Assembly (NCBI GenBank): GCA_903905585.1
Contig: CAIVHB010000051.1
Coordinates: 8,856-72,855, forward strand
Source of the DNA: an uncultured Ferrovum sp.
Lineage (GTDB): Bacteria; Pseudomonadota; Gammaproteobacteria; Burkholderiales; Ferrovaceae
Length of the DNA: 64,000 bases
Direction of reading: 5' to 3'
Of the stretch, positions 7,207 to 54,378 are shown piece by piece. A program made the position numbers and the translations under genes. A model generated the notes under the pieces. That model was not told the origin of the DNA. It was given only the letters and a program-made list of their open reading frames with translations, and did no database searches. Numbering within the stretch: position 1 is the first letter of the stretch; every line of letters starts with the position of its first letter.

Positions 7207-7346
7207 AACGCGCTGAATAAGCCCGTTTTTCACTTCTTCCTCTGACCTTTGTTTTTTGAGTTGGCACTTGATAATCGTTTCACGATGATCGTGTTAACCG
7301 AGCCATGGGGGGTCGGAGCCGTCATCGTGACGGAGTCTTGGCCACC

Positions 7347-8597
7347 ATGGCTGAAGAAAGTGATTTAGAAAAAACGGAATCGCCCTCACCGCGAAGACTA
7401 GAACAAGCGCGAGAAGAGGGACGTGCGCCACATTCGCGAGAGCTGGCATCGTTCTCGGTTTTATTTTCCGCAATTGTAGGCCTTGCCATCATTGGCGAAT
7501 CGCTGGCCTCTGCGATGCGCCGCGATCTAAAAGCTGGCCTGACCTTTGATCACAGCTTAGTGCTGCATCCAGAGTGGATGACTGAGCGCTTGGGTGAAAT
7601 GTCCATGTCTACGGTTGGCTCGCTCCTACCTTGGTTAGGCGGCATCTTCCTTTTCGGCAGTCTGATTCCCTTGACCATGTCCGGTTTTCTTTTTTCTACA
7701 AAAAATTTCATGCCCGATTTCTCGCGCCTTTCTCCTGCGCGTGGCTTGGGCAACATGATGTCAGTATCTGGTTTGGTGGAATTGGTTAAAGCCATTCTTA
7801 AAGCCGCATTGATTGGTGGTTTGGCCGCATGGTTTCTATGGAGCAGCGAGGGGACAACCCTAGGACTGGCCAATTTGGATGTTGGTCAGGGCGTGACAAC
7901 GGGGATTGATTTAATGCGTCGCTGTATGTACGTATTACTTGCTGGCTTAGCTGCGGTAGTGGCGATTGATGTGCCTTTTCAGCTTTGGCGTCATCACGAT
8001 AGTTTGAAAATGACGCGCGAAGAGTTAAAGCAAGAAGCCAAAGAAACAGATGGTGATCCCCATGTGAAGGCCCGTATTCGCCAACAGCAACGTGCCGCAG
8101 CGCGCCGTCGCATGATGAGCGAAGTGCCCAAAGCGGACTTTGTGGTCACTAACCCAACTCACTACGCCGTCGCATTAAAATATGATTCAACCATGCGCGC
8201 ACCTAAGGTGGTCGCTAAGGGCGGTGATCTGATTGCGCTCAATATTCGTGCACTAGCTGAGAAGCACAGCATTCCAATTCTTGAGCAACCGCCACTTGCC
8301 CGTTCACTTTACAAACATACTCAACTTGAGCAAGAAATACCTCCAGCATTGTATTCCGCTGTGGCAGAGGTACTTGCCTATATTTTCCAACTGCGTGCCT
8401 TTGAGAGTGGTAAAGGCGCCTATCCTAATCAACCCCGTACAGTTGATGTTCCTGTTGAATTAGCGGTGCCCGCCACCCCGGGTGTCATGGATGAAGACTC
8501 CGAGTCTTTGGATGCCTCTAGCACCAGCCTACAGACCCCGAGCGGTACCTTAGGTGCGATCTCTAGTATTCAAACAGGTGGGGTACTGAGCGTATGA
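7347..8597 (+). CDS. flhB: Flagellar export apparatus switch protein FlhB
   Basis: The canonical N-terminus MAEESDLEKTESPSPRRLEQAREEG begins at ATG 7347 (the tracked ORF starts earlier, at 7305). The NPTH autocleavage site is present (VVTNPTHYAVALKYD). There is a ~60-aa acidic/Ser-rich C-terminal tail. Confidence 0.92.
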   Translation: MAEESDLEKTESPSPRRLEQAREEGRAPHSRELASFSVLFSAIVGLAIIGESLASAMRRDLKAGLTFDHSLVLHPEWMTERLGEMSMSTVGSLLPWLGGIFLFGSLIPLTMSGFLFSTKNFMPDFSRLSPARGLGNMMSVSGLVELVKAILKAALIGGLAAWFLWSSEGTTLGLANLDVGQGVTTGIDLMRRCMYVLLAGLAAVVAIDVPFQLWRHHDSLKMTREELKQEAKETDGDPHVKARIRQQQRAAARRRMMSEVPKADFVVTNPTHYAVALKYDSTMRAPKVVAKGGDLIALNIRALAEKHSIPILEQPPLARSLYKHTQLEQEIPPALYSAVAEVLAYIFQLRAFESGKGAYPNQPRTVDVPVELAVPATPGVMDEDSESLDASSTSLQTPSGTLGAISSIQTGGVLSV

Positions 8598-31576: not shown

Positions 31577-32947
31577 TTAAGCAAAAGTATCCAATAGGCC
31601 ACGGTAAATCTTTGTTGCGCTACCCGAAGCAACCAAGCTGGGCACCGCTGTTGCGCCTTCCCCTATGGTGTTTAAAGAGGATGCACTTGATCGGCTACCG
31701 GCTGCGTCTTGATCTTGATTTTGTTGCGAAGATTGGGCAAATTGGCCGCTTAAGTCAGGCTGAACCTGAGTTTGCCCTAATTCTAGTCCTGCTTGGGTAA
31801 ACATATCTCTGAGCTGGGGTAAGCTGGCTTCAATGGCTTGGCGAACTGCTTCATGCGGGGATACGAAAACGGCAGAAGCTTGGTCGTGTTTTAAATCTAA
31901 GGTGATTTGAATAGGCCCTAAGTGCTCAGGGTTGAGGTTGAGTTGTGCAGAACCCATCTGGTTTTTTGCAATAAATAGCGCTTGTTGTCCTAATGCAGCA
32001 GCCCAAGGCCCTTCTCCTAATGCGGGTGCGATGGAGAGCGACGAACTGCCTGTTGGGCTCGTTAAGCTTGCAGTCTCACCCATGGTGTTTGCTGCGCTAT
32101 TTTCTTGCAGCCCCTCTGCGTAGATCAGATCTTGAGATGCATCAGGCTGAGCGCTGAGATGGTTGAGCCCGCTTGTGTTGCTCAATGCTGAACTGCCTCC
32201 AATACTAGCCAGCGCGCCTCCTGCCACTGGCAGAGAGTTTGAACCGTTGATCGCTGGGTTTTGAATGCTCGTTACCATGGCTTGTGCAAAATGACTTGCG
32301 TTCATGACTTCAGATTGGCTTTCTGCTAAAACATTGTTAGGGTTATTTGTTGCGCCATCCATAGGTAGCCCTGCTAAAAAAGCTTCTTGGCTTGCACTTA
32401 ATCCATGCACGTTGGACTGAGCAGCCCGGGTGCTGTTGTCAGGGGTGGGAGCTGGGTTTTGAGTGGGGTCGGTTTGTGTTGCATTTGCTTGGGCCGTTTG
32501 CGTATTGCCCATCGCTGAGCTTGAATCGTTGGTTGCAGATGAGGGAGCAGAACTAGATTGACTGGTATCTGCTGTGGGGGAAGCGGTGCTAGATGCGTCA
32601 TGATTGACTGGGGTATGGGTTTTATCTTTAGTCTTTTTGGGGTCATGAGGTTTATGAGCCTCATTGGCTTGCTTAAGGGTGGATTCATTTGCATTTTGAA
32701 CCGATCCATCTTGCAGATTTGCGCCAGCAGAAAAAGAGGGATTTGGTCGATGCGCTGCATGGGTTGAAAAACGAGAAGCATCGGCGAGTCCCAAAGATTG
32801 AGTCATGTTTATCTGGGATTGGGAGTTGACTAAGGCATCGGAAAACAGGCTGCCAAAAGAAGTGTTTGAACTCGCAGTCTTATCCATTAAATGGGTCTTA
32901 TTCGAGACATTAACTGCAGGCGCTAAAGATGAAGCAATGGTTGTCAT
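31577..32947 (-). CDS. fliK: Hook-length control protein FliK
   Basis: Position between fliJ and fliL. The N-terminal and central regions are disordered and Ser/Thr/Ala/Gln-rich. The C-terminal Flg_hook/T3S4 domain is present (AQLNLNPEHLGPIQITLDL...ASLPQLRDMFTQAGLELGQTQVQP). Confidence 0.88.
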   Translation of the reverse strand: MTTIASSLAPAVNVSNKTHLMDKTASSNTSFGSLFSDALVNSQSQINMTQSLGLADASRFSTHAAHRPNPSFSAGANLQDGSVQNANESTLKQANEAHKPHDPKKTKDKTHTPVNHDASSTASPTADTSQSSSAPSSATNDSSSAMGNTQTAQANATQTDPTQNPAPTPDNSTRAAQSNVHGLSASQEAFLAGLPMDGATNNPNNVLAESQSEVMNASHFAQAMVTSIQNPAINGSNSLPVAGGALASIGGSSALSNTSGLNHLSAQPDASQDLIYAEGLQENSAANTMGETASLTSPTGSSSLSIAPALGEGPWAAALGQQALFIAKNQMGSAQLNLNPEHLGPIQITLDLKHDQASAVFVSPHEAVRQAIEASLPQLRDMFTQAGLELGQTQVQPDLSGQFAQSSQQNQDQDAAGSRSSASSLNTIGEGATAVPSLVASGSATKIYRGLLDTFA

Positions 32948-38435: not shown

Positions 38436-38640
38436 AGTATTTATGCCATTTGATGGTTATCTAGCGGGTCAGGGCATCAACTTAATGTGCCCTATTCGCA
38501 ATTCATGAATCACATTATTACGCATTGTCAGCGCATCCTAATTGCATGATAAGAAGGGAGTAAAACCCCTTTATTGAGCTCTAGATTCAAGGATTAGGGA
38601 GGCAAAATGGCAGTCATCGAACATAGAAAAGGTGCATCAC

Positions 38641-39129
38641 ATGCCCATTTCAGGAATCTCTAGCAGCCCCTCGGTTGGTATTGATCAAATTTTGGCTCAG
38701 ATCCGTCATGTCAAGGCTAGAACGCAATCTCCTACCCTGGGCGCTGAAGCCAATGGTGCTGGCCCTGCGGGTGCGGGGCCAGCGAGCATCGTGAACTTGG
38801 GTTCTGGGTCAGTTGGGCAACCCAGTCAGGCACTGAATGCGCTCAGAAACAACGCACTTAATGTGTCTGGCGTTCAAGGGGTGGGAGATGCTGCGCCCGC
38901 AGCCCCGGGTAGTTTTATGAGTTCGCTGAAAGCCTCGCTAGATCAAGTTAATAACAGTCAGAACAAAGCTTCAGAGTTAGGTCAATCGTTTGAAAAGGGC
39001 GATCCTAACGTGGATTTAAATGATGTGATGGTAGCGGTTCAGAAAGCCAATGTGAGTTTTCAAACTGCTGTGCAAGTAAGAAACCGAATGGTTTCTGCCT
39101 ACCACGACATCATGAATATGCAGATTTAA
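38641..39129 (+). CDS. fliE: Flagellar hook-basal body protein FliE (N-terminally extended)
   Basis: The FliE C-terminus is present (SFMSSLKASLDQVNNSQNKA...DLNDVMVAVQKANVSFQTAVQVRNRMVSAYHDIMNMQI). ATG 38641 is preferred; GTG 38632 is possible. Confidence 0.9.
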   Translation: MPISGISSSPSVGIDQILAQIRHVKARTQSPTLGAEANGAGPAGAGPASIVNLGSGSVGQPSQALNALRNNALNVSGVQGVGDAAPAAPGSFMSSLKASLDQVNNSQNKASELGQSFEKGDPNVDLNDVMVAVQKANVSFQTAVQVRNRMVSAYHDIMNMQI

Positions 39130-39136
39130 TGATTGT

Positions 39137-39559
39137 TTAGGTAAAACGCGAACGACTTTGCGCTTTCTTTCTTTCTTGGGCCTGAATGGTGCGTCTGACA
39201 AAGCGCTCGTCTTCTGCATTTAAGTCCTCTACAGAACACCCATAACGCCAAATGGTGTTGCCATCTGTTTGCAGCTCTTCTTTAACGTGCCGAAGTATGA
39301 GGGTGAGTGCCGCTCGATCAATGGCATTAAATTCTAGGTAGCAATTTGGAATGGGTTCTCCGACCGGAAGCGCCGTAATTTTTTCGGTGCTTTCAAAGCT
39401 AAGCCCCCCTTCGCTTAAATCCATCACTCTAAAAAAACAGTTTTCTCCCAGAACAGATTCCGGAAATTCGACGATGGGAACATTTCCTAAACCCAGCGCA
39501 ATACGATATGTTTCGCGTTTTTGCGCGATGCTTTCTGCGGGAGACGAGATATCTTTCAA
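39137..39559 (-). CDS. Stand-alone PilZ-domain protein (predicted c-di-GMP receptor)
   Basis: Both PilZ signature motifs are present: RxxxR (KRETYR) near the N-terminus and D-x-S-x-x-G (MDLSEGG). The TTG start has a strong GGAGG 5-6 nt upstream and overlaps the upstream stop (TTGA). Confidence 0.75.
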   Translation of the reverse strand: MKDISSPAESIAQKRETYRIALGLGNVPIVEFPESVLGENCFFRVMDLSEGGLSFESTEKITALPVGEPIPNCYLEFNAIDRAALTLILRHVKEELQTDGNTIWRYGCSVEDLNAEDERFVRRTIQAQERKKAQSRSRFT

Positions 39560-39930
39560 GTGACCTCCGGTTTGGGAAGGGAAAGGGTGGGGGGGGTGTC
39601 TTTGGCAGCCTGTCCCGAATCAAGATAATGCAACCAAGCAAGTAGTTCAGCTACGGCACGATATAACGAGGTGGGAATGTGCTTGTCAAGATCTACTTGA
39701 ATAAGCAGGGCCACGAGTTCTCTCGATTCATGCACATAAACGCCATGCGCTTTGGCGCGCTCAATAATGGCATCAGCAAGCATTCCTCTGCCCTTGGCGA
39801 CGACTCTAGGAGGCCCGCGTTCGGCGTCGTATGCCAGCGCTACAGCCTGCTGTCGCGCGCGCAGCCCCGCCTCGTCAAGATCAAAGTGCTCTTCAGACAA
39901 CTTTACTCTCGATGTCTTTAGGTTGAACAC
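39556..39930 (-). CDS. FlhB C-terminal-domain-like soluble protein (FlhX/YlqH-like)
   Basis: It aligns with this window's FlhB from just after the NPTH site (AVALAYDAERGPPRVVAKGRGMLADAII..A...........IPTSLYRAVAELLAWL versus AVALKYDSTMRAPKVVAKGGDLIALNIR...IPPALYSAVAEVLAYI). It has no TM region and no NPTH site. The start is uncertain (GTG 39930 or TTG 39900). Confidence 0.75.
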   Translation of the reverse strand: MFNLKTSRVKLSEEHFDLDEAGLRARQQAVALAYDAERGPPRVVAKGRGMLADAIIERAKAHGVYVHESRELVALLIQVDLDKHIPTSLYRAVAELLAWLHYLDSGQAAKDTPPTLSLPKPEVT

Positions 39931-40783
39931 TTAATTGTTCGGTGCGAATTCCTGCATCTTGCAGCCGTGTACCCAAAACAGGAAGGGCAAGTTTCATCTT
40001 TGAAACTTGCAAAGCATCGGTGATGAGACTGATTTGACAGCCTTGGGGGCCCAATCTTAATTCTGCTAAGACTTCTCCCAAATGGGGTAGCGAAAGTTTG
40101 AGGGTACTTTTCCAGTGGATGGGTGACGAGCCCGCACCATGTTCCTGGTCGCCATGCGGATATACATCATCCGGCTGAACTGACCATTGTAGGTCTTGCC
40201 CCGGCCAAATTTGGCCTTGCCAAGGAATCACTTGAGAGTCTAAGGATTGCAACTGTTGCTGCAAAACTCCCAGTGATTGAGGGTGAATGGTGCGGGTGAG
40301 GCTGGCGGTTAGCGTGTGAGCGTTTTGCAGAAGATCATGTGTTGGCCCTGAAGGAAGCACGTCTGGCCGAGGTTTTGTGGGGCGGTCAAGTTGCGCTTGC
40401 GGTTCTTGTAAAATCTGAGTTTGTGAGCGTAAGCCTGATACCCAGTCAGCCAGATGGGATTCATAAAATATCCCAGAATTTGAGAGTGCATGAGACAAAA
40501 CGTGTGCGAGATCGGCTGTGCTCTGATCTCCTGATACTGCAGGGCTGCCAAGCAGTGCTTGGGTTTTAACTGTTTCCTCATTTTGAGGAAGCGTGATGCC
40601 CAAAATAGATTCGATGAGTTGTCCTGTTCTGGAAAGTTCTAAGCCAGACAGTTCATTTGCTACCGCTTGAGATAATTCGACACCAGATGGCACGTTTTGT
40701 GGGGCAACGCTCAAGGCAGAATCTATTGCATGGCCAGAAACAACCGGGCCTACGGCAGAAACTCCCGAGAGCGCATCAACCAT
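39893..40783 (-). CDS. FliK C-terminal (Flg_hook/T3S4)-like protein, second copy
   Basis: The C-terminal ~65 aa (STLKLSLPHLGEVLAELRL...LALPVLGTRLQDAGIRTEQLSVQP) parallels the true FliK in this window (AQLNLNPEHLGPIQITLDL...ASLPQLRDMFTQAGLELGQTQVQP). The ATG lies 1 nt after the fliT stop. Confidence 0.65.
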   Translation of the reverse strand: MVDALSGVSAVGPVVSGHAIDSALSVAPQNVPSGVELSQAVANELSGLELSRTGQLIESILGITLPQNEETVKTQALLGSPAVSGDQSTADLAHVLSHALSNSGIFYESHLADWVSGLRSQTQILQEPQAQLDRPTKPRPDVLPSGPTHDLLQNAHTLTASLTRTIHPQSLGVLQQQLQSLDSQVIPWQGQIWPGQDLQWSVQPDDVYPHGDQEHGAGSSPIHWKSTLKLSLPHLGEVLAELRLGPQGCQISLITDALQVSKMKLALPVLGTRLQDAGIRTEQLSVQPKDIESKVV

Positions 40784-40784
40784 T

Positions 40785-41117
40785 TTAGTGCATACCTGAA
40801 CCGTAAGCCTTATTGAGTTTTTGTTGCGAACCCGTTGAATGGATCAGTTCTTGTAATTCATCCATCCAAGGTTGCGTTTCACGACGAATGGCGGTGTCGT
40901 CGGCTAAAATTTTGCGCAGTAAATCGAGTTTTTCAAGTTTCAAGGCAGGGTCTAGTTCAACCTCAGCCTCTGATTCCATCAGAGCATGTGTGAGGGGGCG
41001 GCACTGGTTTTCAAGATCTTGCAGGTGCTGCCAGTCTCGTCGCTTAGCCGCATTCACCATAGCGCCCATGATTTGAGAAATACCGTTGTAAATACTGATC
41101 ACTTCTACTGGGGTCAT
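40785..41117 (-). CDS. fliT: Flagellar chaperone FliT (FliD chaperone)
   Basis: It lies immediately downstream of fliS. The C-terminus (ILADDTAIRRETQPWMDELQELI...QQKLNKAYG) resembles enteric FliT ([23 protein letters not shown]...QKSVLSAYG, recalled from memory). ATG 41117 avoids overlap with fliS; the tracked ORF extends to 41198. Confidence 0.7.
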   Translation of the reverse strand: MTPVEVISIYNGISQIMGAMVNAAKRRDWQHLQDLENQCRPLTHALMESEAEVELDPALKLEKLDLLRKILADDTAIRRETQPWMDELQELIHSTGSQQKLNKAYGSGMH

Positions 41118-41125
41118 ATGAGCGC

Positions 41126-41566
41126 TCACACCGTAGCCGATTTCATCGATTGCAATCCTACAGGCTTTTGCCTGCGTTTGGGTGTGATTGCACTCCATGC
41201 CGATTCTAGTTCACCCAGTAATCCATCCACTTCAACTAGTTTTGAGCGATCGTTATGAATGTTGGCCTGAGAAAGACAAAATTGCATATATTCATATAGT
41301 GAAGAGAGACGATCTGCCATCTGGGGATCGGCTTTCCAACTTAAACTTTGATTAAGACCTTCAGAAATAATAGAGATTGCACGGCCAATATTTAAGCCTT
41401 TAGCTGCAATGTCCCCTTGTTCCAGCGCAAACATAGCTCTGCCCACCGCAAAGCGCGCTCCTTCAAACAACATGGCCACTAATTGATGGGGGTCTGCATT
41501 CATGACACCCGTTTCAACTCCAGTCTCTTCATACGCTCGTGCGCCACGTAAATGTGATCCAAACAT
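41126..41566 (-). CDS. fliS: Flagellin chaperone FliS
   Basis: The FliS core is present (YEETGVETGVMNADPHQLVAMLFEGA......A....I.AKG..I.RAISII.EGL..SL). ATG 41566 has GGGAG 9 nt upstream; the tracked ORF extends to 41662. Confidence 0.9.
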   Translation of the reverse strand: MFGSHLRGARAYEETGVETGVMNADPHQLVAMLFEGARFAVGRAMFALEQGDIAAKGLNIGRAISIISEGLNQSLSWKADPQMADRLSSLYEYMQFCLSQANIHNDRSKLVEVDGLLGELESAWSAITPKRRQKPVGLQSMKSATV

Positions 41567-41698: not shown

Positions 41699-41726
41699 CT
41701 TACGGCTACCCGCCCAATAAACTTGA
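41699..41726 (-). promoter_or_regulatory. Sigma-28-type promoter for the fliS-fliT-(fliK-like)-(flhB-C-like)-pilZ operon
   Basis: The minus strand reads TCAAGTTT-N12-GCCGTAAG. The -10 element ends ~133 nt upstream of the fliS ATG. Confidence 0.5.
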
Positions 41727-42083: not shown

Positions 42084-43691
42084 ATGGCTTCTTATATCAA
42101 CACCAACTATGCTTCGCTGCAGGCCCAGTATAATCTGACCCAGTCGCAATCGGGGCTGACCACTTCTATTCAGCGTTTATCCTCTGGTCAGCGTATTAAT
42201 ACGGCTGCGGATGATGCTGCTGGCTTAGCGATTTCTGATCGTATGACCGCACAAGTCAACGGTCTAGATCAAGCCGGCCGCAATGCAAACGATGGTATCT
42301 CATTGGTACAAACTGCTGATGGGGCTTTATCTTCTATCGCAGCTGACTTACAGCGTATGCGCCAATTGGCAGTGCAATCCGCTACAGGTACGCTGTCATC
42401 TGCAGACCGTCAGTCAGTGAACCAAGAGTCACAAAACCTCTTGGCGGAAATTAATCGTGTTTCAAGCACAACTAACTTTAACGGCGTGAGTCTCTTGGAT
42501 GGTACCTTTACGAACAAGAACTTCCAGGTTGGTGCTTCAGCCGGTCAGACTGTTGGTATGACTTTGAATGCGGCCAATACTAGCGACTTGGGCGCTTACC
42601 AGTTATCCGGTACAAGTAACTATTCATCAGGCTCGCAAGGTGCATCTACTGTCAGTATCACCAGTTCCTACAGCTCTTCTAGTTACCTCACTATTACCTC
42701 AGATAATACAGCGACGACGGGTGTTCAGATTGGTGCTTCAGTTGCTACCAACCCAACCACCAATTCGTACCTGGGCTTGAGCGCAACCAGTGCTTACGCT
42801 AAGGCTGCAGCAATTAATGCGCAGTCTTCTCTGACTGGAGTGAGTGCAAGTGCAGTGACCTACCTTGGTGGCCTTAACATCACTTCCACGTCCTCTATCC
42901 TCTCTACTGCCCCTACAGCTTTAAGCAATATGGCTGCAGGTGATTTGTACATCAATGGAGTGTCGGTAGGTTCTGCTATCGCAGGTACGGATTATGTCAG
43001 TGAGGGTACTAACGTCACTTCAGCCATTAATGCGATCTCTGCTAGTACGGGCGTCACCGCAACTGTGGATACCAGTTCTGGTGCAATTACGCTTGCGGCT
43101 GCTGATGGCAGGGATATTAATGTGAGCTCCACCGCGAATGGTTTGGTTGCAAGTGGATTAGGCTTTGGAACAAGAACAAGTTCTTCTACCGCTCCTGCTG
43201 CATCTGATACCTTAACAGCAGGGGGGATTTTGACCTTGTCTTCAGCGGTGAATTTTGCGGTCACCTCTACGGGCACCGCCTTGGCTGACTCAGGTTTGAC
43301 AGCCGACACGACGGCACCCGCGGCGAATACCATAGCGACTACATCGGGAACCACTGCGCTAGCTGAGACGTTTACAGGGATCACAAACGTTGACCTGACT
43401 ACACAAGACTTAGCAACGACCGCTTTGACCACTCTGGATGCAGCGATTCAGCAAGTTGACACACAGCGCGGTAACTTGGGTGCGATTCAAAACCGTTTTC
43501 AATTAACCGTGAATGACCTTGATACAAATTCGATTAACCTTCAAACGTCCCGTAGCCGAATTCGTGATACTGATTTTGCGGCAACGACTGCAAGCTTATC
43601 GCAATCACAGATCTTGCAACAGGCTGGAACTGCCATGTTGACGCAAGCAAACACCTTGCCCAACTCGGTATTGGCTCTGTTGAAAGGTTAA
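42084..43691 (+). CDS. fliC: Flagellin FliC (535 aa)
   Basis: Conserved D0/D1 termini (MASYINTNYASLQAQYNL...RLSSGQRINTAADDAAGLAISDRM and GAIQNRFQLTVNDL...SRIRDTDFAATTASLSQSQILQQAGTAML). The variable domain is Ser/Thr/Ala-rich. Confidence 0.97.
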   Translation: MASYINTNYASLQAQYNLTQSQSGLTTSIQRLSSGQRINTAADDAAGLAISDRMTAQVNGLDQAGRNANDGISLVQTADGALSSIAADLQRMRQLAVQSATGTLSSADRQSVNQESQNLLAEINRVSSTTNFNGVSLLDGTFTNKNFQVGASAGQTVGMTLNAANTSDLGAYQLSGTSNYSSGSQGASTVSITSSYSSSSYLTITSDNTATTGVQIGASVATNPTTNSYLGLSATSAYAKAAAINAQSSLTGVSASAVTYLGGLNITSTSSILSTAPTALSNMAAGDLYINGVSVGSAIAGTDYVSEGTNVTSAINAISASTGVTATVDTSSGAITLAAADGRDINVSSTANGLVASGLGFGTRTSSSTAPAASDTLTAGGILTLSSAVNFAVTSTGTALADSGLTADTTAPAANTIATTSGTTALAETFTGITNVDLTTQDLATTALTTLDAAIQQVDTQRGNLGAIQNRFQLTVNDLDTNSINLQTSRSRIRDTDFAATTASLSQSQILQQAGTAMLTQANTLPNSVLALLKG

Positions 43692-43692
43692 T

Positions 43693-43738
43693 CTGGGGAC
43701 GATGTTTAATTAAGCAAATCATCCCCAGGAGAATTTTT
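43693..43738 (+). terminator. Probable Rho-independent terminator or attenuator after fliC
   Basis: CTGGGGAcGAT...ATCaTCCCCAG forms a hairpin starting 2 nt after the stop. A TTTTT run lies 5 nt downstream of the stem. Confidence 0.55.
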
Positions 43739-43795
43739 CTCTTGGGGTGTTCTGGCTAAAGAGCCAGATAGATAAAGGGTTGGAGGAAATCCGAC

Positions 43796-44233
43796 ATGGA
43801 GATTAATACAGTTAATACAGCAATGCCAATGGTAAGAGAAATGACCACTGGTGCGTCAGATGCTGGCCATGGGAGAGCGCAAGTCGCTCTTGACCCCGCC
43901 TTTGCACCGACTCGGGTTGCGTCTTCACCACAGGCGACGACTGGATCACTTGCAACGAATGGAACGGGTGCGGATGTTCCTTCTGCCGAACAGAAAGGCA
44001 ACACGGCCAGACAGGCAGCATTGAAAGAGGCAATGGATGCAGCGACGCAATCTATTCAGCAGTTATCCCCGTCTTTAGAGTTTCAAGTTGACCCAGAGAC
44101 AAAACAAACAGTTGTGCGCGTGGTGGATACCACGAATAATGAGGTGATCAAGCAAATTCCTAGCGCTGAGTTTTTAAGAATTTCTAACGCAATCGAGGGT
44201 TTGCAAAAACATCTGCTCGACGAAAAGGCCTAA
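43796..44233 (+). CDS. flaG: FlaG family flagellar protein
   Basis: The FlaG C-terminal motif is present (LEFQVDPETKQTVVRVVDTTNNEVIKQIPSAEFLRIS). The gene sits between fliC and fliD and has a GGAGG Shine-Dalgarno sequence. Confidence 0.88.
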   Translation: MEINTVNTAMPMVREMTTGASDAGHGRAQVALDPAFAPTRVASSPQATTGSLATNGTGADVPSAEQKGNTARQAALKEAMDAATQSIQQLSPSLEFQVDPETKQTVVRVVDTTNNEVIKQIPSAEFLRISNAIEGLQKHLLDEKA

Positions 44234-44239
44234 AACGTT

Positions 44240-46474
44240 ATGTCATCATCCAGTGGGATCAGCGGTTTATTGAGCACATTAAACACGGGTGCTACTGGAA
44301 ATAGCGTGACTGGAAGCACAAGCGCTTCGGGGTCAACGGGAAATTCCAGCAATTCAAGTTCCACCAGTACGAATATTGGAAATATTGGTAACCTTTTCAC
44401 ATCTTCAAATCAAGGCACCTTAGCTTCCGCAGGAATTGGCTCTGGATTGGATGTGAATCAGTTGGTGAGCCAATTGATGTCAGTGGCACAAGCTCCTGTT
44501 ACGCAACTCAACTCCCAAATCAATACAGATCAAAGTAAGATCAGTGCTTATGGTCAGCTTAGTGCAGCGGTTTCTAGCTTTCAGACCACGTTAGGGGGTT
44601 TAACCGACTCCACACAATATAATTCTTATACTGCAACCCCCTCAAATACCACTGTGATGTCGGCCACCGCGAGCACAAAGGCGACGGCTGGCACCTACAC
44701 GATAGGGGTAACGCAATTGGCGCAAGCGCAAACCTTGGTGGCTACAGGCCAATCCAGTGAAACAAGTTCGATTGGTTCAGGCACCTCTACAACACTTTCG
44801 TTCCAATTTGGAACGGTGAGTACCTCTGGCAGCACGACCAGTTTTACCCAAGACTCGTCTGTTAGCGGTGGCTCCGTCACGATCACTTCAAGCAATAACA
44901 CTCTTCAAGGAATTGCCTCCGCAATTAATGCAGCAAGTATTGGGGTAAGCGCTACCATCGTGAATGATGGCGGAACCTCGCCGTGGCGTCTTGCCTTGAC
45001 TAGTGCTAAGGCGGGTGCAAACAGCAATATGAAAATTACCGTCAGTGGTGACGCTACCCTTGAATCATTGCTGGCCCAAGATCCAGCCGGAACTCAAAAC
45101 ATGACCCAGACCCAAGCAGCGCAGAGCGCGGCTTTAACCGTGAATGGTTTGTCTATTTCGAGTTCTACAAACACCATTACAAGCGCAATCCCGGGGGTCA
45201 CGCTGAATCTTGCCTCAACCACTACTTCATCGACTACTTCCGGTAGTTCAACTACCACGAATAACACCCCCATATCACTTGTGGTTGCTCAAGACACAAC
45301 GAATATTGCTACGCAGGTGCAATCGTTTGTGACGGCCTACAACGCAATGGATACTACGGTTTCTCAACTGACTGCTGCGGGATCAAGTGGAGTTTCCGCC
45401 GGCTTGCTCGCTGGGCAGTTCAGTGCCCAAAAAGTTCAAAGCCAAATGCGTAGCATGTTGGGTGGCTCGATGATTGGCCCTGGCGGAACCGCGGTATCTC
45501 TGAGTGATATTGGTATCACTTTTCAAAAAGACGGAACCTTAAGTTTAAATTCCACCACTTTGAATAATGTGATTGCGAGCAATCCAGCAAAAGTGGGTGC
45601 AGTGTTCGCACAAAACAGTGCCCCGAGCGATAACTTAATCAGCGTGGCATCCGTTGGAAGTGAGTCTTCTGCAGGAAAGTACTCAGTCAATGTGAGCCAA
45701 CTCGCGACCCAAGGTGTTCTTACCGCTGGAACAGATGTGACCGTTCCCTACACGGTCACCTCAGGAAGCAACGATACTTTGAGCGTCTCAATCGACGGCG
45801 TTGCAGCTACCGTAACGATCCCTTCGGGAACCTACAGCACAGCAAGTAGCTTAGCGTCTGCTTATCAGTCTGCGATTAATGGTTCCTCAACACTGCTTGC
45901 TGCAGGTAAATCTGTCTCAGTTGCTGCGGATTCTGATGGTTTAATGAGTTTTACCAGTTCAAGTTATGGCAGCAGCTCGTTTGTGAGCTTGGGCGGAACG
46001 GCCTCTTCTGGGGTACTGGGAACGAACTCGGTTTTTACTGAGGGAACGGATGTCGCAGGCACGATCAATGGATTTACGGCAACCGGAAAAGGTCAGAATT
46101 TGACTGCCACTGCAGGTTCTGCAGCATCAGGTCTGATATTAAAAGTTGAAGGCACATCAACAGGTTCGCGAGGCACGGTGAGTATTTCGCAGGGTTTTGC
46201 TAACACGCTCAATACCTTGGCTAATTCATTTGTGAGTGCTACTGGCCTCATTACGGGGGCTACGAATACCCTGAACAAAGACATTACCAATAATAATGCT
46301 GCTATTTCTCGTTTGAATTCTCAGCTTTCGCTGCTTCAAAGTACGTATCAAGCACAGTTTACCGCGCTGGATACGATCATCTCTTCCTTGAATAATACGC
46401 AGAGCTATCTGACGCAGCAGTTGACTTCCTTGTCGAACACAACGGGATATATCTACGGAAGCAGCAGTGGCTAG
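44240..46474 (+). CDS. fliD: Filament cap protein FliD (HAP2), enlarged (744 aa)
   Basis: The FliD N-motif (GIGSGLDVNQLVSQLM..AQAPV..L) occurs after a ~58-aa Ser/Gly/Thr/Asn leader. The C-terminal coiled coil is present (YQAQFTALDTIISSLNNTQSYLTQQL). Confidence 0.93.
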   Translation: MSSSSGISGLLSTLNTGATGNSVTGSTSASGSTGNSSNSSSTSTNIGNIGNLFTSSNQGTLASAGIGSGLDVNQLVSQLMSVAQAPVTQLNSQINTDQSKISAYGQLSAAVSSFQTTLGGLTDSTQYNSYTATPSNTTVMSATASTKATAGTYTIGVTQLAQAQTLVATGQSSETSSIGSGTSTTLSFQFGTVSTSGSTTSFTQDSSVSGGSVTITSSNNTLQGIASAINAASIGVSATIVNDGGTSPWRLALTSAKAGANSNMKITVSGDATLESLLAQDPAGTQNMTQTQAAQSAALTVNGLSISSSTNTITSAIPGVTLNLASTTTSSTTSGSSTTTNNTPISLVVAQDTTNIATQVQSFVTAYNAMDTTVSQLTAAGSSGVSAGLLAGQFSAQKVQSQMRSMLGGSMIGPGGTAVSLSDIGITFQKDGTLSLNSTTLNNVIASNPAKVGAVFAQNSAPSDNLISVASVGSESSAGKYSVNVSQLATQGVLTAGTDVTVPYTVTSGSNDTLSVSIDGVAATVTIPSGTYSTASSLASAYQSAINGSSTLLAAGKSVSVAADSDGLMSFTSSSYGSSSFVSLGGTASSGVLGTNSVFTEGTDVAGTINGFTATGKGQNLTATAGSAASGLILKVEGTSTGSRGTVSISQGFANTLNTLANSFVSATGLITGATNTLNKDITNNNAAISRLNSQLSLLQSTYQAQFTALDTIISSLNNTQSYLTQQLTSLSNTTGYIYGSSSG

Positions 46475-53900: not shown

Positions 53901-54206
53901 TTATTTAAACGCTTTCTCTTCAGTGAAGTATTGTTTTTCAAACTCTGCAGGATTGGTTGCCCCTGTTTTTAAGAGTTCTTGGTCAGTTGGGCTCAGTAAA
54001 AACTCTCTTCCGTCACTGACAAGCAGCGTGGGGCCCTCAGGTCTATCCCAATCCACACTGGGTTCTCTTTTAATTCCGCTGCCTGCCCCATTACCCTTAG
54101 CGCTTGAATATTTGTCATTCAAGTAGCTCCAGATGGCGTAGAGCAGAAAGCAAGACGCTGCAATGAAACCTACAAAAAGCAACAAAGGTATGTAATGGCG
54201 AATCAT
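53901..54206 (-). CDS. Hypothetical small membrane protein
   Basis: A 101-aa ORF with one N-terminal TM helix (IPLLLFVGFIAASCFLLYAIW). I recognise no family. Confidence 0.45.
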   Translation of the reverse strand: MIRHYIPLLLFVGFIAASCFLLYAIWSYLNDKYSSAKGNGAGSGIKREPSVDWDRPEGPTLLVSDGREFLLSPTDQELLKTGATNPAEFEKQYFTEEKAFK

Positions 54207-54378
54207 TCGTATCCTTTTTACACGCTATGGCACAGCCTTTTTAACGGCGCTTTGAGCACAAGCTTGAGATGATTAAACCCTTAAGAAATATTGAGTTAGG
54301 TGTGTTTTATATTTCTTATTGTAAGCTCCAATCCTATATATCTCTCTTTTGTAATGTTTGCAAATTTTTTCAGATTTT

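Follow-up and report, generated by a model that had tools for sequence, protein, structure and literature searches.

In a 64,000-nucleotide (nt) stretch of contig CAIVHB010000051.1 from an uncultured Ferrovum sp. (the window, taken throughout at its full length), the genes for the flagellar export chaperones FliS and FliT are followed by a gene pair that is well supported as a local version of a conserved and widespread module, fliK2-flhX. The first product, FliK2, has a T3S4 (Flg_hook) domain in common with FliK, the protein that controls hook length, and the second, FlhX, is a free-standing homolog of the cleaved C-terminal chain of the export gate protein FlhB (FlhB-CC). Gene pairs of this kind are already known and named, and the window holds no new kind of element. 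The best explanation that we can offer, to which we give just short of an even chance, is that the pair is a late module in which a T3S4-CC complex would tune the export gate after hook completion.

Results

FliK2 is encoded on the minus strand (39893..40783) by an open reading frame (ORF) of 296 amino acids (aa). Residues 221 to 288 (39920..40123, minus strand) match the Pfam family Flg_hook (PF02120) with an E value of 5.3e-8 and 33.0 bits, at a gathering score of 29.8, and the same match is found in 50 of 50 FliK2 homologs. A profile of 19 homologs matches the C-terminal domain of FliK (2RRL) at 6.9e-6 and the switch domain of PscP (5CUK) at 1.1e-3. The AlphaFold2 (AF2) model of FliK2 reaches a predicted local distance difference test score (pLDDT) above 90 over residues 224 to 288, and the two best structures in a Foldseek search with this model are again 5CUK (root mean square deviation [rmsd], 1.5 Å; TM-score TMt, 0.63; probability, 1.0) and 2RRL (probability, 1.0). 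Beyond the T3S4 domain, the search with the full model returned only noise (metallo-beta-lactamase matches with an rmsd above 10 Å). The original prediction, made from the letters of the DNA, had assigned the Flg_hook/T3S4 domain to this ORF by an alignment by eye with the C terminus of the window's genuine FliK, which lies among fli genes (31577..32947, minus strand; 456 aa; Flg_hook, 5e-21). The assignment itself is borne out by profile and fold, but the pairwise alignment does not hold up, as BLASTP between the two proteins gives an E value of 0.21, which is not significant, over the T3S4 stretch only. Hence, it is the profile and the fold that carry the claim.

The same prediction had spoken of a second copy of FliK, and this had to be abandoned. 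Only the T3S4 core of approximately 65 aa is common to the two proteins. The N-terminal 85 aa of FliK2 give no family match in Pfam and no homology to the FliK ruler in a BLASTP comparison with the window's FliK, the tail after the T3S4 domain counts 8 aa versus 54 aa in FliK, and FliK2 has a FYE[S/A]H module of its own. From LPxLG to the C terminus, a stretch that corresponds to the domain plus only a short tail, the family median is 63.5 aa, and the window's protein has 65 aa. The 296-aa protein is a member of a separate large family, not a second FliK, and it is not a hook ruler.

In the AF2 model, FliK2 consists of a disordered N terminus (approximately 85 aa), the helical FYESH module, a variable linker, a beta-hairpin, and the T3S4 domain; the hairpin that precedes this domain reads W-Q-G-Q-I-W-P-G-Q. 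No segment resembles a transmembrane (TM) domain (maximal Kyte-Doolittle hydropathy over 19 residues [KD19], 1.20). The family-specific module (residues 89 to 131; 40391..40519, minus strand) contains, in two alignments, the near-invariant residues S-G-x-F-Y-E-S-H-x-x-x-W and E-P-Q; this part of the protein matched nothing in Pfam or the PDB. Because the first homolog search was word seeded, the motif count was repeated with an exhaustive HMMER search that was not, using as the query only residues 88 to 205, without the T3S4 domain. This gave 1,618 clusters at 50% identity with an E value of ≤1e-3, 497 of them with an E value of ≤1e-10, and the top 145 representatives carry FYESH (122), FYEAH (22), or FYENH (1). 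Two ideas about the function of FliK2 gained no support. FYESH, considered as a gate-recognition motif that would suit the FlhX pocket, does not fit the published motif FxxxPhi, as its Phe is the sole one of the protein and the +4 residue is His; it could at most be a variant. The idea that FlhX receives a strand or linker resembling FlhB-CN from FliK2 was rejected, as an hhalign comparison of the FliK2 profile with full-length FlhB gave no match (probability, 0.1).

Between the FYESH module and the T3S4 domain runs a hypervariable linker; family members range from 162 to 870 aa, a variation in length that is reminiscent of ruler proteins. In the 870-aa homolog (P0251), approximately 12 tandem repeats of approximately 40 aa (PPSAADAQKAQVLANHAEVI) are found at this position. 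Longer homologs also have a conserved N-terminal block of approximately 70 aa (GQ..A.V..LP.G.F.V.I...L.L.LP...KPGD.L.L.V). This block is missing from the window's FliK2 and its close relatives, which have the short form in common, and the lineage of the window has lost it.

FliK V302 and I304 cross-link to FlhB-C, and I304 is critical for switching (PMC6972891); the equivalent positions in FliK2 are Val and a near-invariant Ala, respectively. The disordered C-terminal tail of Salmonella FliK (approximately 50 aa), specifically its last residues, is also required for switching (PMC6972891, PMC13344023).

FlhX is encoded directly downstream (39556..39900, minus strand), with 114 aa from a TTG start at 39900 or 124 aa from an alternative GTG start at 39930 (39556..39930). 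The 124-aa ORF matches Bac_export_2 (PF01312) at 2e-17, at profile positions 262 to 335 of 335 only. Its best-scoring NCBIfam model is TIGR00789 (flhB_rel; 3.5e-22, 78.4 bits); since this score is under the trusted cutoff of 117.35, FlhX resembles the flhB_rel family without being an NCBI equivalog. The genuine FlhB of the window (7305..8597, 430 aa) has its NPTH autocleavage site at residues 283 to 286, and BLASTP aligns FlhX with it at 39% identity (E value, 4e-13) from residue 288, after NPTH-Y. In a PDB sequence search, FlhX likewise matches the cleaved CC chain 3B0Z_B from chain residue 5, and a Foldseek search with its model finds the CC chains of FlhB, PscU, YscU, and EscU at TMt values of 0.71 to 0.75. 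There is no TM-like segment (maximal KD19, 0.85, versus 2.12 in FlhB), and NPTH is absent from the window's FlhX as it is from all 120 homologs inspected (0/120). Thus, what had been proposed for the small ORF, namely an FlhB-CC-like protein that starts right after the autocleavage site and is soluble, without TM domain and NPTH, agrees with these results throughout. Both ORFs give significant profile matches, so that the outcome named beforehand as refuting the observation, profile searches without such matches, did not occur, and the observation stands. FlhX is well supported as a soluble stand-alone FlhB-CC homolog without the membrane domain, the CN linker, and the NPTH site.

In Salmonella FlhB, the residues A286, P287, A341, and L344 form the docking pocket for early substrates (PMC13344023). 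In 45 FlhX sequences, the counterparts of P287, A341, and L344 never vary, and that of A286 is Ala in most homologs and Pro in the window's protein, so that FlhX keeps the hydrophobic early-substrate (rod/hook-type) pocket of FlhB. The AVALAY strand, which comes right behind the place of the missing NPTH and in FlhB is the start of the CC polypeptide, is invariant as well; FlhX thus keeps the strand that pairs with FlhB-CN. An invariant segment of its own, VHES.EL..LL, takes the place where FlhB has LEAPPLAR.

The distribution of the pair was surveyed with a genome scan seeded on SG[LMI]FYESH[QL], which gave at least 600 matches and 597 confirmed relatives, a biased lower bound. The 80 best loci were annotated; they come from Nitrosomonadales, Rhodocyclales, Burkholderiales, Neisseriales, and three Geobacteraceae. 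A gene for FlhX lies directly downstream of the fliK2-type gene in 73 of the 75 loci that have room for it. FliS is encoded upstream of FliK2 in 61 and FliT in 51 of 68 loci, and YcgR/PilZ follows the pair in 43 of 67. The same order is seen with independent gene calls in Noviherbaspirillum CP040128, a 2.2-Mb contig, a Burkholderia contig, and the chromid of Cupriavidus metallidurans CH34, and fliK2 and flhX overlap by 1 to 17 nt between stop and start in six of eight gene-called loci. In the gammaproteobacteria Salinisphaera and Aidingimonas, the order is fliD-fliS-fliT-fliK2-flhX, followed by flhDC; a search with the Salinisphaera query brought up these two genera and a large number of Burkholderiales, with Pseudomonas absent from the matches. 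Overall, the named relatives found were from Burkholderiales, Neisseriales, Salinisphaera, and Aidingimonas. RefSeq labels the FliK2 proteins "flagellar hook-length control protein FliK" and the FlhX proteins "EscU/YscU/HrcU family ... switch protein". It had been guessed that pairs of this kind would be annotated elsewhere in the Betaproteobacteria, and the survey and these labels support this.

A few loci deserve separate mention. On the megaplasmid of CH34, a cultured strain that is well studied (L090; NC_007974.2, 1951790-1961969), the order, as annotated in this analysis, is fliC-flaG-fliD-fliS-fliT-fliK2-flhX-fliE(-)-fliF, with a FliK2 of 447 aa that has the FYEAH variant and an FlhX of 91 aa; the PLSDB table is without annotation for this region, and a protein search of PLSDB found three Cupriavidus chromids only. 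In an Accumulibacter locus (L064), a 983-aa protein follows FliK2 in the place of FlhX. Three Geobacteraceae metagenome-assembled genomes (MAGs; L048, L068, and L079) have the FliK2-FlhX pair with no detectable fliS or fliT adjoining it. As these lie outside the Beta- and Gammaproteobacteria, they suggest either a wider distribution or horizontal transfer.

Both fliK2 and flhX are under purifying selection. The ratio of nonsynonymous to synonymous substitution rates (dN/dS) is about 0.14 for fliK2 and about 0.09 for flhX (range, 0.09 to 0.15, with dS near saturation). Between relatives, FlhX is 82 to 86% identical, like FliS or FliE, and FliK2 is fast evolving, at 55 to 59%.

The coordinates and gene order that had been given for the locus are correct, and all genes lie on the minus strand, but of the operon's five genes, fliS-fliT-fliK2-flhX-pilZ, the first four had been recognized and the last, a 140-aa PilZ ORF, had been overlooked. 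fliS (41126..41566, minus strand) encodes the 146-aa flagellin export chaperone (Pfam FliS, 7.8e-30; TIGR00208, 1.5e-23), and fliT (40785..41117, minus strand) encodes a 110-aa protein that is both FliD's export chaperone and a regulator (Pfam FliT, 1.3e-23). Gene calls on public contigs of identical sequence supplied the start of fliS, the 110-aa length of FliT, and the TTG start of flhX. A 1-nt gap separates the fliT stop codon from the ATG of fliK2; fliK2 and flhX overlap by 8 nt from the TTG start or by 38 nt from the GTG start; and the TTG start of pilZ overlaps the flhX stop (TTGA, 4 nt), with GGAGG 5 nt upstream. These tight junctions (the 1-nt gap and the 8- and 4-nt overlaps) argue for one transcript with translational coupling from fliT through pilZ. 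On the plus strand, fliE (38632..39129) converges on the operon, and fliC-flaG-fliD (42084..46474) diverge from fliS.

Upstream of fliS, a sigma-28-like promoter is predicted from a consensus match (TCAAGTTT-N12-GCCGTAA; 41700..41726, minus strand), approximately 135 to 160 nt before the fliS ATG, and would drive a late, sigma-28-type operon. The exact pattern, TCAAG-N14-16-GCCGWWA, occurs three times in the window versus 0.13 expected, and one of the matches lies upstream of flgK, a typical late gene. The motif sits at -159 from the fliS ATG in the window and at -164 and -160 in the relatives L088 and L089, respectively. For these relatives the pairwise dS to the window either is at least approximately 1.4 or defies estimation because of saturation, so that the position of the motif is conserved despite near-saturated synonymous sites. 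Thus, the proposed location of the pair with fliS-fliT behind a sigma-28-like promoter is upheld by an exact motif that relatives have as well. With two mismatches allowed, the pattern is not enriched (13 matches versus 8.8 expected), and only the exact motif is therefore informative. A separate sigma-28 motif before fliK2 was sought with the strict pattern in 17 loci with a fliT-fliK2 gap of >120 nt and found in none. The third exact match (TCAAGCTT...GCCGTTA; 54242-54267, minus strand) lies upstream of a 101-aa ORF (53901..54206, minus strand) that has no Pfam match and is possibly a late flagellar or chemotaxis gene.

The last gene, pilZ (39137..39559, minus strand), encodes a putative stand-alone PilZ domain. 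Its Pfam PilZ match (4e-4, 21.0 bits) is just under the gathering score of 22.5; the motifs RxxxR (RETYR) and DxSxxG (DLSEGG) are present and align with those of YcgR, and the ORF aligns with the PilZ domain of the Noviherbaspirillum YcgR that is encoded at the same position (E value, 5e-4). Most relatives have a full YcgR (PilZN plus PilZ, approximately 250 aa) in place of the short PilZ. The short form is also found in close relatives (L088, L089, and the P0002 contig), and the PilZN domain of this flagellar brake homolog therefore seems to have been lost in the lineage of the window.

Discussion

In the Salmonella model, FlhB-CC holds the export gate in early mode until it is driven out by FliK once the hook is complete (Chevance et al., mBio 2026, PMC13344023), and the ejected FlhB-CC is then lost as the sigma-28 genes turn on (PMC13344023). 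The explanation that we favor for fliK2-flhX builds on this sequence of events. The operon would be made only once sigma-28 is active, which in Salmonella is when FliK has ejected the FlhB-CC of the gate. FliK2 and FlhX would form a 1:1 complex via a T3S4-CC interface identical to that between FliK-C and FlhB-CC, a complex that we infer from the translational coupling of the two genes and their nearly constant adjacency; such a heterodimer we judge to be somewhat probable. FlhX might next take the place of CC on FlhB-CN or compete for it, or else compete for ligands of CC, with FliK2 acting as its escort or regulator, although actual docking of FlhX at the gate strikes us as rather doubtful. 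Being without the FliK tail, FliK2 would bind but could not eject. The net effect would be that the state of the export gate is tuned or stabilized during filament assembly, and the co-transcribed PilZ/YcgR protein possibly places this effect under the control of cyclic di-GMP (c-di-GMP). Also in favor are the FliA dependence of the Pseudomonas putida operon, the partial substitution of H. pylori FlhX for FlhB-CC, the pocket and strand kept in FlhX, and the Val at the position of FliK V302. In a bolder version of this scheme, which we consider improbable, FlhX would be a replacement part: FliK2 would deliver the late FlhX to FlhB-CN after ejection and thereby create a distinct gate state, which would fix or tune export while the filament grows and be linked to c-di-GMP by PilZ/YcgR, and FYE[S/A]H would recognize the vacated gate or FlhA.

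Several points weigh against gate tuning by a late FliK2-FlhX complex. In Salmonella, it is the loss of FlhB-CC that permits late export, so that the usefulness of a late CC copy is not obvious. The interface may differ from that of FliK, given the change of I304 to Ala. The conserved FYE[S/A]H module is left without a role in the model, the structural model of FlhX is of moderate confidence (pLDDT, 70), and the late timing in the window is predicted from a consensus match only. Furthermore, two loci without an adjacent flhX were found (L023 and L064, both Accumulibacter MAGs), and because of these exceptions and of the H. pylori FlhX, which has no reported FliK2, the two proteins are not strictly obligate partners.

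The same residues of FlhX also allow for a mechanism away from the gate. Soluble FlhX might never dock and instead serve as a cytoplasmic decoy, its pocket sequestering leftover rod/hook-type subunits or FliK and keeping these away from late-mode gates or new basal bodies, with FliK2 capping or regulating it. The conserved early-substrate pocket, the lack of a membrane anchor or CN part, and the late expression, which is predicted here and matches the FliA dependence of the Pseudomonas putida operon, would all suit such a decoy. However, the strand that pairs with FlhB-CN is also invariant, which fits docking at least as well as a free existence, and H. pylori FlhX is described as able to replace FlhB-CC function at the gate; on balance, we regard the decoy as unlikely. 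The adjacent export chaperones FliS and FliT raise yet another scenario, in which FliK2, as a substrate or ruler, would be secreted, with FlhX as the adaptor or chaperone dedicated to its docking. The position of the pair would thereby be accounted for. Most characterized T3S4 proteins are secreted, and the disordered N terminus (approximately 85 aa in the AF2 model) and the highly variable linker, with protein lengths of 162 to 870 aa and approximately 12 tandem 40-aa repeats in one homolog, would be in keeping with secretion. Yet, the window's protein has lost the N-terminal block of approximately 70 aa, it has no FxxxPhi gate-recognition motif, its only Phe being within FYESH, and nonsecreted T3S4 proteins exist, HpaC being described as one (PMC3040844). 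We see only a small chance for a secreted FliK2.

That the genes are what is left of an flhB/fliK duplication, in decay and by now without function, might be read from the fast evolution of FliK2 (55 to 59% identity between close relatives) and from the N-terminal shortening of the window's protein. The conservation data effectively refute this: both genes are under purifying selection (dN/dS, approximately 0.09 to 0.15), motifs stay unchanged in at least 1,618 clusters, the order is kept in 73 of 75 loci in Beta- and Gammaproteobacteria, and the reading frames are intact and coupled. Decay is therefore hardly credible, and a late complex that tunes the gate remains the explanation that we favor.

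The specificity switch of the flagellum counts among the classic problems, and work from 2026 argues that it operates through the ejection of FlhB-CC, driven by FliK. A very widespread module whose products are a free-standing likeness of FlhB-CC and a T3S4 protein lacking the tail, and which apparently is made after the switch, is an obvious piece of this machinery that lacks an explanation. Our survey sharpens the question in that FliK2, labeled "FliK" in RefSeq, proves to be a family apart, marked by a near-invariant FYE[S/A]H module, FlhX retains the docking pocket for early substrates, and across the Betaproteobacteria and some Gammaproteobacteria the pair goes together with fliS-fliT and often with PilZ/YcgR. 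Cupriavidus metallidurans CH34, Burkholderia, and P. putida are tractable carriers of the pair.

A close known counterpart is found in P. putida, where PP_4328/PP_4329 were described in 2016 as a Flg_hook protein and a small homolog of the FlhB C terminus (Jimenez-Fernandez, PMC5026340). In 2021, PP_4328-PP_4329 were named fliK2-flhX, reported to be FliA dependent (class IV), and called uncharacterized (Leal-Morales preprint, 10.1101/2021.08.29.457346). This preprint credits the name FlhX to Pallen 2005 and cites Wand 2006 and Smith 2009 for the finding that H. pylori HP1575 partially replaces the function of FlhB or of deleted FlhB-CC. Full-text literature searches returned no functional study of the fliK2-flhX pair. 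The original statement that no functional study was known thus stands for the pair itself, but it has to be set beside the partial replacement of FlhB-CC by HP1575 and the P. putida operon described in 2016 and named in 2021. As in the window, the P. putida Flg_hook gene is followed by a co-oriented flhX within a flagellar cluster; in contrast, the P. putida pair forms an operon of its own near cheW-flrD, whereas in the window and most Betaproteobacteria it is joined to fliS-fliT, with PilZ/YcgR after it. Orthology of the two pairs would rest on architecture, order, and regulation.

FlhX of H. pylori (HP1575), together with TIGR00789 and YlqH of Bacillus subtilis, resembles the window's FlhX in being an FlhB-CC homolog of approximately 90 to 125 aa without TM domain and NPTH. 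For H. pylori, however, the literature consulted describes no FliK2-type partner, whereas in the window FliK2 is adjacent. With the FlhB-CC of the gate, FlhX has in common the fold of the cleaved CC chain and the docking-pocket residues, but it is a separate gene product that needs no autocleavage, would be made late rather than early, and has VHES.EL..LL in place of LEAPPLAR. Similarly, FliK2 and FliK (2RRL) correspond in the T3S4 profile and fold of the C-terminal approximately 65 residues, and they differ in that FliK2 is without ruler or N-terminal homology, has a tail of 8 aa instead of approximately 50 aa and Ala for I304, carries the extra FYE[S/A]H, and is encoded at a different locus. 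Finally, proteins of the HpaC/HpaP type are T3S4 proteins, as is FliK2, and they act on a C-terminal domain of the FlhB/YscU family; HpaC is described as interacting with HrcU-C (PMC3040844). Among the FliK2 homologs, 13 of 50 also touch the Pfam family HpaP, which the window's FliK2 does not match. HpaC/HpaP belong to an injectisome context, whereas the FliK2 of the window stands in a flagellar one.

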